DNA of 64,000 bases from a virus: IMG/VR virus record IMGVR_UViG_3300044616_001452; one strand, given 5' to 3'. The notes beneath the pieces were generated by a model, which saw only the letters and a program-made list of their open reading frames with translations, was not told the DNA's origin and searched no databases. Below are positions 12,694-16,814 of the stretch, piece by piece (the first letter of the stretch is position 1; each line of letters starts with the position of its first letter). A program made the position numbers and the translations under genes.

Positions 12694-12765
12694 GTTGTAT
12701 AAAAACAACAGTGTATTGCCAAGACAAGCAAATGCTACTATAATACACATATACGTTCTTTAAAA
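12694..12765 (+). promoter_or_regulatory. tRNA-array promoter 1 with GTTG-N8-CAAC box and boxA-like site
   Basis: GTTGtataaaaaCAAC; TTGCCA-17-TATAAT at 12716-12744; CGTTCTTTAAAA at 12754-12765. Confidence 0.75.
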
Positions 12766-13050: not shown

Positions 13051-13145
13051 GGTAGGTAGCACTGGTGTGCGGCTGAGTCTTATAAGCTCGGGAGATCGGT
13101 CAGATGGGCTGAAACGGAAGGGTTCGAATCCCTTACCTACTACCA
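13051..13145 (+). tRNA. Atypical class II tRNA with UAU anticodon (amino-acid identity uncertain)
   Basis: GGTAGGT/ACCTACT acceptor; GCAC-TGGT-GTGC D arm; 6-bp anticodon stem with loop CTTATAA; long variable arm; TTCGAAT; ACCA. Confidence 0.8.
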
Positions 13146-13230: not shown

Positions 13231-13345
13231 GTTGCAATAAAACAACGTTGTAAAAATACAACAAAATCGAAGTTGACAACGGTACCAATACCTGTATAAT
13301 TGATTCTGTTGTCGATGCAGTAGTGATAACAAACGATCTTTAAAA
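13231..13345 (+). promoter_or_regulatory. tRNA-array promoter 2 with tandem GTTG-N8-CAAC boxes and boxA-like site
   Basis: Boxes at 13231-13246 and 13247-13262; TTGACA-16-TATAAT at 13273-13300; CGATCTTTAAAA at 13334-13345. Confidence 0.75.
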
Positions 13346-13361: not shown

Positions 13362-13436
13362 GCACGGTTCGTCTATCGGTTAGGACGCTAGCCTTTCACG
13401 CTGGAAAGACGGGTTCGATTCCCGTACCGTGTACCA
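13362..13436 (+). tRNA. tRNA-Glu(UUC)
   Basis: Loop CTTTCAC; cloverleaf; CCA. Confidence 0.93.
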
Positions 13437-13558
13437 TATTGAAGCACATTAGAATCTGTAAAAAGATCCAGGGTTGGTACACCTCATGACTTTCGGCCGT
13501 GCTGAGTTTACGGAAACAAGCGGAAGCATGCATAGACCGTAGTGTGTTTCAATATGGT
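13433..13558 (+). ncRNA. Putative ncRNA A closed by a long stem (inter-tRNA spacer)
   Basis: ACCATATTGAAGCACATT pairs with AGTGTGTTTCAATATGGT; same stem family as 13972-14071. Confidence 0.55.
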
Positions 13559-13724
13559 AATAGGGTTCTGTCCCGTAAGGGAATGGTAACGAAAGTGCCT
13601 TCCAATATGTTCGGTGGCCAACGAGCATAGATGCGGAATGTATGAGTAGAGAGGTGAACGAAAGTTTGCGATAAAGCCCCGGTAGGCCTAAGCATGTAAT
13701 GTGTACAAAGTACATCCCTGTATC
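13556..13724 (+). ncRNA. Putative structured ncRNA B
   Basis: TAGGG...CCCTG closing pair; hairpins TCCC-gtaa-GGGA, TATGTTCG..CGAGCATA, AAC-gaaa-GTT, TGTAC-aaa-GTACA; no sense-strand ORF in the track. Confidence 0.45.
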
Positions 13725-13731
13725 AATTTTC

Positions 13732-13818
13732 GGGTGCGTAGCCAAATGGTTGACGGCAGCAGACTGTAAATCTGTGACATAAGAAACGCTGGTGGTTCGA
13801 ATCCATCCGCACCCACCA
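13732..13818 (+). tRNA. tRNA-Tyr(GUA)
   Basis: Loop CTGTAAA; long variable region; CCA. Confidence 0.93.
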
Positions 13819-13820
13819 AT

Positions 13821-13894
13821 GCGGGTATAACTTAGTGGTAAAGTAGCTGGCTTTTAACCAGCAAATCCGAGTTCGATTCTCGGTGCCCGTACCA
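13821..13894 (+). tRNA. tRNA-Lys(UUU)
   Basis: Loop CTTTTAA; CCA. Confidence 0.93.
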
Positions 13895-13898
13895 AATT

Positions 13899-13975
13899 GC
13901 CCTCTTACTCCAATTGGTAGAGAGGACGGTCTTAGAAGCCGTAGAGTCTCAGTTCGAATCTGAGAGAGGGCACCA
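13899..13975 (+). tRNA. tRNA-Leu(UAG), short variable loop
   Basis: Loop CTTAGAA; variable region only 5 nt; ACCA. Confidence 0.88.
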
Positions 13976-14071
13976 TATTGAAGCATTCTAAACTGGACGC
14001 AGGATCGGGGAAAGTCAAAAGCGGGTTGATCACCACAAGTAGACTGGAGATCAAGAGTGCTTTAATATGGT
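13972..14071 (+). ncRNA. Putative ncRNA C closed by a long stem (inter-tRNA spacer)
   Basis: ACCATATTGAAGCATTCT pairs with AGAGTGCTTTAATATGGT (18 bp); fills the gap between tRNA-Leu and tRNA-Asp exactly. Confidence 0.55.
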
Positions 14072-14143
14072 TCCATAGTATATCGGCGAGTATAGCGCCC
14101 TGTCACGGCGCAGGAACGGGTTCGAATCCCGTTGGGACCGCCA
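14069..14143 (+). tRNA. tRNA-Asp(GUC)
   Basis: Loop CTGTCAC; GCCA end. Confidence 0.93.
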
Positions 14144-14145
14144 AT

Positions 14146-14219
14146 ACCTGATTAGCTCAAAGGTAGAGCACCCGGCTGATAACCGGAAGACACTGGATCG
14201 TTACCAGTATCAGGTACCA
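14146..14219 (+). tRNA. tRNA-Ile(GAU), non-canonical T-loop
   Basis: Loop CTGATAA; T-loop ATCGTTA; ACCA. Confidence 0.88.
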
Positions 14220-14225
14220 GATTTA

Positions 14226-14274
14226 GTTGTTTATATACAACAGTATTGCCAAGTTCGATATATAGTTATATAAT
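14226..14274 (+). promoter_or_regulatory. tRNA-array promoter 3 with GTTG-N8-CAAC box
   Basis: GTTGtttatataCAAC; TTGCCA-17-TATAAT at 14246-14274. Confidence 0.75.
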
Positions 14275-14344
14275 GTTTTTCAAGTCGGGAGACTTTAAGA
14301 AGTACGCCGTTTCCTTCGGGTAACCCTGTATACGGTAAGCAGGA

Positions 14345-14541
14345 TTTTTATTGTTGTCGTTTTGGAAAATACCTGTGAACGCAGGTTAGTGAATCTGTCA
14401 ATGTGTGGTTAATTCGAATAGACCACGTATACAGTTGTTATCAAGTGAAGACCTTTTGGACGCATTAGGAATAAGCTTGGTCGTTAAAATCAAACGCCAG
14501 TACGGTGAAGGCTGGCTATAACGAAACGACAACAATAAAAA
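14345..14541 (+). ncRNA. Putative ~200-nt multi-hairpin ncRNA D
   Basis: Perfect 18-bp terminal inverted repeat TTTTTATTGTTGTCGTTT/AAACGACAACAATAAAAA enclosing several hairpins. Confidence 0.55.
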
Positions 14542-14543
14542 TT

Positions 14544-14959: not shown

Positions 14960-15847
14960 ATGTTGTTGGATGAAATTATTTCTGTTCCATATACTACTCA
15001 TCCTAAGATGACGAAAAATAAAGGCAACATTTTCAACAAAACTCCAAATTTAGATTATATTCGTTCTAAAGAAAAAGAGTTAAAACAATTTGCTCCTGAT
15101 TTGTGTGCCGAGACATTTGAAAATATCTCAAAGCAACTTGTTCGAAAAAGTTCAATCTACTGTGGTGTACCACAAACAGATTCAATGATTGAATTTGCAA
15201 TGAATTTTGAAGAAGATGTTGCAATTATGCATAACGGAAAATTATCAGGAATTTGTTTCTGTTTTCCAAGCAGTTGGATTCCTAAAAAACGCATAGGTAT
15301 GTCTCTAGAAGATATTCATTCACAAGTTGCGGATAATGAAAGACTTATAAAAATGAGCGCAAAAATTGCAAGCACAATGGCTGATCCTGTTTTAGGTTCT
15401 TTTCGAAGATATGTATGGACGATTACAAATAATCCTGAATTGAGTAATCATCCAAAAAGAAAAAGTATGATTGTTCCTAAAAGTTTAGATGATTTGTATT
15501 TTAGACTTGAAACTCAAACAACTGCACCTATAGGTGACTGTGTGACAAGTTTGTTCTTTGTTAAAGTTCAAGTAATTCCTCTTAGTCATGTCTGGGGAAG
15601 TTACGGTAAACTAATTACTAACAGTGTAAATTCTATGAGTGATGCAATCTTGGAATACAAAAATCTAAAGCATATTAAAACGGTCCTTAGTTCAATGGAT
15701 CAGAACACCGGGCTACGAACCCGTGAGGTTGGGAGTTCGAATCTCTCAGGACCGGCCAACCATAATTTGAAAGATGAGTATTATGATATTCTTACAACTG
15801 AAGATTGTTTAGTTAAAGATTCTCCCAGTGGTGTAAAGGCAACATAA
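14960..15847 (+). CDS. DUF3445 / heme-dependent oxidative N-demethylase alpha-like protein; 3' end reads through tRNA genes
   Basis: AGGAG RBS; EDVAIM, CFPSSW..K.IG.SL..IH..V, RYVWTI, FRLETQT motifs. Confidence 0.7.
   Translation: MLLDEIISVPYTTHPKMTKNKGNIFNKTPNLDYIRSKEKELKQFAPDLCAETFENISKQLVRKSSIYCGVPQTDSMIEFAMNFEEDVAIMHNGKLSGICFCFPSSWIPKKRIGMSLEDIHSQVADNERLIKMSAKIASTMADPVLGSFRRYVWTITNNPELSNHPKRKSMIVPKSLDDLYFRLETQTTAPIGDCVTSLFFVKVQVIPLSHVWGSYGKLITNSVNSMSDAILEYKNLKHIKTVLSSMDQNTGLRTREVGSSNLSGPANHNLKDEYYDILTTEDCLVKDSPSGVKAT
15681..15758 (+). tRNA. tRNA-Arg(ACG)
   Basis: Loop CTACGAA; TTCGAAT; GCCA. Confidence 0.9.
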
Positions 15848-15895
15848 GAGTCTCCAAAACTTTTGATTGCGGTTCGAATCCGTACTGGGAGGCCA
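15822..15895 (+). tRNA. tRNA-Trp(CCA)
   Basis: Loop CTCCAAA; G73; CCA. Confidence 0.92.
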
Positions 15896-15913
15896 TTTTA
15901 TCAGAGGTGGATT

Positions 15914-16384
15914 ATGTACAACAAAAAAATTAATCTAGAAGAAGTTAAATCGTTTATTGAAAGCTGTGGTCCCAATACCAAAGTTTATCTTGGTTGTGAC
16001 TCGGAAAAAGTTAAAATGAATGGTGTTTGGCATGCTGATTATATTATAGCCATTGTTGTGCATATGAATAGCAAAAATGGTTGTAAAATTTTCGGGCAAA
16101 TCACTCGTGAACGTGACTATGATCAAGCTCGCAATAAGCCACGTATGCGTCTGATGAATGAAGTTTATAAAGTTGCAGAAATGTATCTGAATCTTGCGGC
16201 AATCATTGATGTGGATATTGAAGTACATCTTGACATTAACCCAAATGAAGAGTATAATTCAAATATCGTAATTAATGAAGCAATTGGCTATATAAAAGGC
16301 ATGTGTAATGTTGTTCCTCTTGTAAAACCAAATGCTTTTGCTGCGTCTTATGCAGCAGATAGATTGAAGAGTCTTGCAGCATAG
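15914..16384 (+). CDS. RNase H-like YkuK family protein
   Basis: VYLGCDS, RLMNEV, EVHLDIN, KP.AFAASYAAD. Confidence 0.8.
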   Translation: MYNKKINLEEVKSFIESCGPNTKVYLGCDSEKVKMNGVWHADYIIAIVVHMNSKNGCKIFGQITRERDYDQARNKPRMRLMNEVYKVAEMYLNLAAIIDVDIEVHLDINPNEEYNSNIVINEAIGYIKGMCNVVPLVKPNAFAASYAADRLKSLAA

Positions 16385-16785: not shown

Positions 16786-16814
16786 TTGACAAGTTACATT
16801 TAATTTGATATAAT
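16786..16814 (+). promoter_or_regulatory. Consensus sigma70 promoter for the last three tRNAs
   Basis: TTGACA-17-TATAAT with extended -10 TGn. Confidence 0.85.

Follow-up and report, generated by a model that had tools for sequence, protein, structure and literature searches.

Stem-closed small RNAs in phage tRNA arrays form a widespread family whose closing helix resembles an RNase III processing signal

Two stem-closed RNAs that lie between the tRNA genes of a phage belong to a real and widespread family, seen only in phage DNA, in which a near-constant closing helix surrounds interiors (here called cargoes) that differ from one copy to the next. Their arms pair as a helix in the RNA, on the tRNA-sense strand. 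Based on its agreement with known cleavage determinants and its fit to the ends of adjoining tRNAs, we think it rather probable that the elements constitute a standard RNase III-type wrapper, putatively excising non-tRNA cargo RNAs from a polycistronic tRNA transcript. As far as we could find, the family is undescribed: a literature search that included the arm as a string returned no paper on it, and RNAs from tRNA arrays go unmentioned in a 2025 review of phage small RNAs.

If this reading is true, a large group of uncultured lake-type phages has made a host RNase III site into a reusable adaptor for small RNAs in tRNA operons, and well over 100 undescribed structured RNA families would be expressed phage products that can be found by looking between the arms. 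No cargo RNA family was found in Rfam or in the literature searched. The same reading, if true, would explain how non-tRNA RNAs are released from phage tRNA transcripts, including the small RNAs of the T4 and T5 tRNA regions, and the wrapper could serve as a compact natural design for freeing defined RNAs from polycistronic transcripts.

Two stem-closed RNAs between tRNA genes

The stretch of DNA analyzed here (the window, 64,000 nt) is part of a 91.6-kb IMG/VR record with a completeness estimate of 55%. By its sequence, the phage is T4-like; the family-B DNA polymerase of the record is about 50% identical to the polymerases of T4-like cyanophages. ARAGORN called 27 tRNA genes in the window, all on the plus strand and 26 of them within 12.8 to 17.1 kb, and five predicted sigma-70-type promoters, each identified by consensus match only, appear to split this array into units. 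The unit that would start from the promoter at 13273 comprises tRNA-Glu, element 1, a spacer, tRNA-Tyr, tRNA-Lys, tRNA-Leu, element 2, tRNA-Asp, and tRNA-Ile (Table 1). Most neighboring tRNAs in the window are separated by a few nucleotides with no stem between them, and the family stem is present only around the two non-tRNA RNAs. When the array was compared with deposited phage records by megablast, nothing alike was found beyond single tRNAs.

Table 1. Features of the tRNA array discussed in the text (positions are those of the window)
Feature	Position	Strand	Remarks
Promoter, sigma-70-type	13273-13300	+	predicted, 12/12 consensus, consensus match only
tRNA-Glu (UUC)	13362-13436	+	element 1 stem opens with the discriminator base and CCA (4 nt, 13433-13436)
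Element 1, 126 nt	13433-13558	+	19-bp closing helix, 13433-13451 with 13540-13558; cargo of 88 nt, 13452-13539
Spacer from element 1 to tRNA-Tyr, 173 nt	13559-13731	+	97.7% identity in locus L103
tRNA-Leu (UAG)	13899-13975	+	discriminator base and CCA (13972-13975) open the element 2 stem
Element 2, 100 nt	13972-14071	+	18-bp closing helix, 13972-13989 with 14054-14071; cargo of 64 nt, 13990-14053
tRNA-Asp (GUC)	14069-14143	+	at the outer end of the element 2 stem, 5'-terminal 3 nt paired to the tRNA-Leu discriminator base and CC
Third cassette, other stem	14343-14543	+	22-bp AU-rich helix, four hairpins; ends one base before tRNA-Ala

Each element folds into a single long closing helix with a branched interior. 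The minimum free energy is -43.2 kcal/mol for element 1 (z = -4.1) and -34.1 kcal/mol for element 2 (z = -5.2), and in both cases none of 200 shuffled sequences was equally stable. A preliminary description of this DNA, made from the sequence alone, had proposed two hairpins with a common stem of 18 to 19 bp whose arms begin directly after the CCA of tRNA-Glu and tRNA-Leu. The hairpins were confirmed and the location of the arms is as described, with a correction to their starting point: both 5' arms begin at the discriminator base and take in the CCA. At the other end, the 3' arm of element 2 takes in the first 3 nt of tRNA-Asp, in agreement with the claim that this element fills the gap between tRNA-Leu and tRNA-Asp exactly. 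The accompanying suggestion that tRNA processing alone would release element 2 is unsupported, because the 5' side sits in a duplex of which the CCA is part; RNase P would define the 3' side only.

Differences between the two copies preserve pairing, as had been noted, with stem position 12 being G.U in element 1 and G-C in element 2; at stem position 9, it is element 1 that has G-C and element 2 that has G.U. The interiors (88 to 90 and 64 nt) have purine contents of 57% (element 1) and 67% (element 2) and are indeed unrelated, given that their local alignment score of 10 was within the range of shuffled sequences (mean, 8; maximum, 12). Neither element was called as a tRNA by ARAGORN or by the Rfam tRNA model (RF00005), and no T-loop was found in either cargo, neither of which is tRNA-like. 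No significant structure was detected in the 173-nt spacer (fold z = -1.4). A 13-nt arm core common to both elements occurs at four sites with zero to one mismatch in the 64-kb window, all of which are these arms; four further matches in the window, with 2 mismatches each, are no more than chance would give. Across the entire 91.6-kb record, the arm core has no other site, and the stem model matched elements 1 and 2 and no others.

Distribution of the family and pairing of its stem

IMG/VR was scanned with a 14-nt arm and later with a two-arm pattern, and elements were counted by script across 348 loci. At least 317 elements were recovered in at least 148 loci, representing at least 250 distinct sequences with a median length of 92 nt, and their interiors fell into at least 162 clusters. 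In the first set, tRNA arrays were present in 50 of 53 element-bearing loci. The association with tRNAs extends to the nucleotide: 116 of the 250 distinct copies begin exactly on the discriminator base and CCA of a called tRNA on the same strand, and 41 finish within the first bases of the next tRNA. A covariance model built from 40 copies (alignment A3) was run on five whole records, among them two complete genomes, one of 400 kb and one of 98 kb that has terminal repeats and lacks a T4-type polymerase. Each record contained two to four elements, confined to one or two small regions at or near tRNA-bearing loci. The idea of a small-RNA family with a constant handle and variable cargo, first raised from the two window copies, is thus borne out by a covarying stem, unrelated interior clusters, and recovery of the stem in related phage tRNA arrays. 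An RNase H-like open reading frame (PF04308) was the commonest neighbor (17 of 53 loci) and was considered as an obligatory partner; this was rejected, as it is missing from the complete 400-kb element-bearing genome, and the open reading frame had no PDB match and no useful literature.

The family stem was not found in 50,697 deposited phage records at the sensitivity of a megablast search with the array and a blastn search with a 65-nt element. Among 185,579 bacterial species genomes, the two-arm pattern gave 33 matches, 32 of which were judged to be chance because they were without CC/GG ends and without a tRNA. The remaining match was a 1.5-kb tRNA-array contig binned with Candidatus Planktophila, a freshwater actinobacterium, and this contig is probably mis-binned. 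No matching Rfam family was identified. At the gathering threshold, tRNAs were the only hits in the whole window, and a search of Rfam 15 with E values up to 1, covering 10 to 18 kb of the window and six related loci, returned tRNAs only, plus a partial GOLLD RNA in locus L046.

The stem shows compensatory change. Of the cells in alignment A3, 98.9% are paired, and 11 of the 18 pairs vary on both sides; none of 500 shuffles reached these values, and no slid register came close. The 250 distinct copies, oriented solely by the strand of neighboring tRNAs, contain 4004 Watson-Crick, 395 G.U, and 53 A.C cells, so that G.U exceeds A.C by about 7:1 on the transcribed (tRNA-sense) strand, and the stem model scores 10 to 20 bits higher on this strand. 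Wobbles are habitual at two positions, U.G at position 17 (75% of copies) and G.U at position 12 (39%). Position 19 pairs, with G.U counted, in at least 169 of the 250 copies, and there is next to no variation at positions 4 to 6 and 11. An alternative fold, in which a 3' arm would pair with the 5' arm of the next element and enclose the tRNAs between them, was also considered and rejected. Arm variants covary within an element and not between neighbors, and the local hairpin is therefore the selected structure. Conservation of the stem exceeds what RNase III is known to need, and another or an additional binding protein is possible.

RNase III determinants and a putative route of excision

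The determinants recognized by Escherichia coli RNase III have been defined on the T7 R1.1 substrate (PMC1540722). The minimal substrate has an 11-bp helix from cut to loop, with a distal box of UA then UG and a proximal box of GC, AU/UA, AU, and AU/UA, the scissile bond adjoining proximal position 4. A G-C pair at proximal position 2, which corresponds to family position 11, blocks binding, and a G-C pair at proximal position 4 reduces cleavage 7- to 14-fold with binding not lowered (PMC1540722). We read the R1.1 stem from the T7 genome, and it fits this numbering, including a non-canonical pair at proximal position 4.

Aligned in this way, the family stem matches the E. coli determinants of R1.1, with the proviso that the rules of E. 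coli may not be those of the host. Two positions fall in the register of the R1.1 distal box, namely, position 18, with UA in 235 of 250 copies, and position 17, with UG in 187. Positions 16 and 15 carry the same pairs as R1.1. Proximal positions 1 to 3 also fall in the R1.1 register: position 12 (proximal 1), canonically G-C, is G:Y in 151 of 250 copies (54 G-C and 97 G.U) and A-U in 93, position 11 (proximal 2) is AU in all 250, and position 10 (proximal 3) is AU in 236. The helix-length rule (at least 11 bp from cut to loop and about 20 bp in all) agrees with the 18 to 19 bp of the window elements, and pairing at position 19 gives 11 bp counted from position 9. The distal box reads UA, UG in element 1 and UA, CG in element 2.

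Position 9 (proximal 4) departs from the AU/UA rule: 198 of the 250 copies have G-C there, 21 have A.C, and 13 have A-U. A.C mismatches concentrate at this position, which holds 21 of the 53 in the whole set, and natural R1.1 is also non-canonical here. Other departures from the E. coli rules are a position 12 that is the canonical G-C in only 54 copies and, in element 2, C-G in place of U.G at distal position 2.

The 3' arm, when read from its own predicted cut, repeats the same N-A-W-G pattern and uses the pairs made with the CCA, and the pairs of this second, dyad-related proximal box are conserved in 233 to 248 of 250 copies. The outer 8 bp are near invariant, which would be explained by this second box, expected from the dyad symmetry of the enzyme and including the CC of the CCA. 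Four functions had been offered for the elements in the preliminary description (a protein sponge, a decoy for RNA-sensing defenses, a guide RNA, and an RNase III processing signal), and the last alone gained specific support, from the distal and proximal boxes. No RNase III gene was found in five element-bearing records, two of them complete, and the enzyme would therefore have to be that of the host.

We propose the following route of excision. The arms would pair during transcription of the cargo to form an 18- to 20-bp helix, the outer end of which would take in the upstream discriminator base and CCA; the helix of element 2 would extend into the opening bases of the next tRNA as well. Staggered cleavage by a host enzyme, putatively of the RNase III type, would follow at 8 bp from the outer end. 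As predicted by alignment with R1.1, it would separate stem positions 8 and 9 on the 5' arm and positions 122 and 123 on the 3' arm (A3 numbering). For element 1, the predicted cuts are at 13440/13441 and 13552/13553 and would yield a 112-nt RNA (13441-13552); for element 2, they are at 13979/13980 and 14065/14066 and would yield an 86-nt RNA (13980-14065). The expected products are an upstream tRNA with a 4-nt trailer, to be trimmed by 3' exonucleases; a downstream RNA with a leader of 3 to 6 nt for RNase P (3 nt on tRNA-Asp); and a cargo hairpin with a 10- to 11-bp stem and a 2-nt 3' overhang, which would presumably accumulate. Since the stem surrounds only non-tRNA RNAs in the window and most tRNA gaps there are short and stemless, it appears to serve the cargo and not tRNA maturation.

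Precedents for such a design are the T7 early site R1.1 and the stalks of 16S and 23S rRNA in bacterial rRNA operons, in which, as in this family, a helix of about 20 bp is formed from the flanks of an RNA that has to be freed from a polycistronic transcript. The likeness to R1.1 extends to details, with the distal box and proximal positions 1 to 3 in the same register and 7 of the 10 pairs from cut to loop identical to those of the family. Unlike R1.1 and the rRNA stalks, however, the family reuses one near-constant stem around more than 100 unrelated small cargoes, and this stem lies inside tRNA operons, has the CCA of a tRNA built into its helix, and carries G-C at proximal position 4. Its cleavage is a prediction.

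Alternatively, the stem may be a protein-binding handle and not a cut site, either in an RNP resembling that of Y RNAs, in which a conserved stem binds Ro60 and a variable module recruits another partner, or in a sponge that binds RNase III or another double-stranded RNA-binding protein and stays uncleaved. The near-invariant positions 4 to 6 and 11 point to conservation above the generic need of double-stranded RNA recognition, and the G-C pair at proximal position 4, which keeps binding and suppresses cleavage in E. coli, is what such a handle might carry. The cargoes provide further evidence in this direction. The most strongly enriched interior motifs across the family are a T-loop and a D-loop-like word, with a T-loop in 32 of 250 cargoes (13%), none of them called as a tRNA; a broader T-loop pattern in the first set was found in 10 of 98 cargoes, 4 of which place it exactly where the T-arm of a tRNA meets the acceptor stem. 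YrlA-type bacterial Y RNAs (RF02553), some of which are phage encoded, likewise join a long stem of the 5' and 3' ends to a variable, sometimes tRNA-like module within 80 to 130 nt (PMC4201824).

Nevertheless, we consider a handle of this kind unlikely. No TROVE/Ro60 gene was found in six records, namely, the record of the window and five others that bear elements, of which two are complete. The Rfam YrlA and Y_RNA models matched no element with E values up to 1, and the published 5' Rsr-binding motif (PMC4201824) had no exact match. In addition, the two window cargoes are without a T-loop, and processing accounts for the exact overlap between the stem and tRNA ends, which a free-standing RNP does not. 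The T-arm in this family adjoins the 3' arm as it does in tRNA. For YrlA, the tRNA-like part is reportedly in permuted order, an observation said to be that of Chen et al. in 2014.

Cargo exchange and comparison with other phage small RNAs

The two window cargoes differ in their distribution. The 5' module of the element 1 cargo recurs in four other loci. In L083 and L106 it lies behind another tRNA (tRNA-Tyr), and in L209 and L274 it is enclosed by stems that vary in sequence but covary. The element 2 cargo was seen in identical copies only (L103, L294, and L295). A guide function directed at the phage's own genome, one of the four roles proposed earlier, was rejected, as the longest complementarity of the cargoes to the rest of the record was 10 to 11 nt, below the mean for shuffled sequences.

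Loci L103, L294, and L295 contain an array 92 to 98% identical to that of the window in which the interior of element 1 has been swapped for an unrelated 41 nt. The breakpoints of this swap are the inner ends of the arms, and the incoming cargo is similar to one that a different phage (L053) carries elsewhere. A change of interior with the arms and the location kept is what the description of a constant handle with variable cargo implies. The same three loci precisely lack the third cassette, which is closed by a stem other than that of the family (Table 1) and has a predicted fold of -65.9 kcal/mol (z = -4.9). Homologs of this cassette are present in L109 and L123, with compensatory changes in 21 of 58 pairs. 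From the interior swap and the third-cassette indel, we conclude that phages acquire, lose, and exchange stem-closed RNA cassettes within short periods, for which recombination between arms is the simplest route.

These exchanges might instead indicate that the arms are recombination or transposition sites at the DNA level, of the MITE or integron attC type, with the RNA helix as a by-product. Beyond the swap at the inner arm ends and the resemblance of the incoming cargo to that of L053, this interpretation could draw on the third cassette, which has its own perfect inverted repeat and is precisely present or absent between the window and its relatives, and on the appearance of the element 1 cargo type behind tRNA-Tyr. 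We regard it as quite improbable, however, considering that copies are restricted to tRNA arrays at two to four per record and are not dispersed, and that selection at the DNA level would not give the excess of G.U over A.C on the sense strand. Moreover, no target-site duplications were found at the two window copies, and no integrase or transposase was found among the most recurrent neighbor genes. Recombination between arms is compatible with the RNase III-type wrapper as the route of cargo exchange, not as the reason for conservation of the stem.

A more speculative extension, which we put forward tentatively and with some doubt, is that the stem is a recombination-competent wrapper, an RNA counterpart of the integron, by means of which phages of several lineages (T4-like, 98-kb with terminal repeats, and 400-kb jumbo) might take up, express, and swap more than 100 small structured RNAs. 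Some of these RNAs are tRNA-shaped and may inhibit host systems for tRNA targeting or RNA sensing, or act on such systems as decoys.

It is very improbable that the elements are tRNA-like precursors, in which the inner 7 bp would serve as the acceptor stem and the outer 11 bp would pair a leader with a trailer, both removed by RNase P and 3' trimming. In favor of this, 4 of the 10 T-loop-like cargoes in the first set have a T-arm that stops exactly 4 nt short of the 3' arm (compare tRNA positions 61 to 65), several of these cargoes fold into cloverleaf-like shapes atop the stem, and position 12 is usually G (compare tRNA position 1). Against it, a T-loop is found in only 13% of cargoes and in neither window cargo, no element is called by ARAGORN or the Rfam tRNA model, and the 3' arm is without a CCA at the needed place. 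The T4 RNA rnaC, a stable RNA from the T4 tRNA cluster, also ends in a T-arm and could be cited in favor of such precursors. Together with rnaD, it makes up the species 1 and species 2 RNAs, which resemble the family in being stable small RNAs in the tRNA cluster of a T4-type phage. Both differ from the family in that they are without a long closing stem, and neither is similar to the family stem.

Phage T5, a cultured E. coli phage, offers a parallel. Its tRNA region has six annotated small RNAs (RNAIII, RNAI, RNA1, RNA2H, RNAIV, and rna2; GenBank AY692264), which, like the elements described here, are non-tRNA RNAs between tRNA genes. No processing study of RNAIII, annotated as a misc_RNA, was found in the literature searched. 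Its stem is unlike that of the family in sequence and register, and T5 has one such stem and not a reused module. The family model gave just 14.6 bits (E = 0.06 in 29 kb), for which reason we treat RNAIII as an analogue and possibly a distant relative. RNAIII has a 17-bp closing stem that runs from the CCA of RNAI into tRNA-His; the arms have a short core in common, and a 2-nt 3' overhang follows from the ends as annotated.

A third cassette and a divergent block

Besides elements 1 and 2, the small RNAs that share an 18-19 bp closing stem in this tRNA array, the window carries a further stem-closed cassette, whose stem differs from theirs and whose 3' end lies one base before the start of tRNA-Ala. 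This cassette had no match in Rfam. It is precisely absent from close relatives and is kept, with covariation, in two other compared loci, L109 and L123.

Relative to the close relatives L103, L294, and L295, positions 13541-14344 of the window are 91.6% identical. Identity in the flanks is 96-98%, which suggests that this block arose by recombination, with element 1 at one end and the site where the third cassette is inserted at the other. The spacer following element 1 is 97.7% conserved in L103 and showed no significant structure (fold z -1.4).

Features of the tRNA array and of compared loci
Feature	Coordinates	Details
tRNA-Ile (UAU), ARAGORN	window 13051-13145	95 nt; long extra arm
Spacer, element 1 to tRNA-Tyr	window 13559-13731	173 nt
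Third stem-closed RNA cassette	window 14343-14543	~200 nt; 22-bp AU-rich stem, four hairpins
ORF, PF11927 (haem-dependent oxidative N-demethylase alpha-subunit-like domain)	window 14960-15847	between tRNA-Met and tRNA-Arg
ORF, PF04308 (RNase H-like, formerly DUF458)	window 15863-16384	inside tRNA array
Five predicted sigma-70 promoters, near-perfect consensus	window 12716-12744, 13273-13300, 14246-14274, 16230-16258, 16786-16814	+ strand
T5 RNAIII	L163:4282-4401 (phage T5, AY692264 30281-30400)	17-bp closing stem
GOLLD RNA, 5' part (Rfam RF02032, 71.7 bits)	L046:1-180	minus strand; cut by contig end

Promoters, reading frames, and a possibly atypical tRNA

The predicted promoters divide the tRNA array into separate units. 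Their closeness to the sigma-70 consensus speaks for a host that recognizes promoters in the manner of E. coli. Two protein-coding ORFs also interrupt the array. The PF04308 ORF is the most recurrent neighbor of the elements, occurring at 17 of 53 loci; it is absent from one complete 400-kb element-bearing genome. The tRNA called as tRNA-Ile matched the Rfam tRNA-Sec model weakly (31 bits, under threshold); it is possibly of an atypical or suppressor type.

Stem-closed RNAs at other loci

The closing stem of RNAIII, the phage T5 small RNA likened to the elements, runs from the CCA of RNAI into tRNA-His. Because this stem holds a UA/UG pair set, together with a G-C six pairs off, it is a candidate RNase III site. 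A 1.5-kb contig (L127, CAZQNP010000058.1) bearing nine tRNAs and one stem cassette was binned in a Candidatus Planktophila genome. The contig is probably phage DNA, and its binning offers at most a weak hint of habitat or host. At L046, the partial GOLLD RNA adjoins a tRNA array that itself bears stem cassettes.
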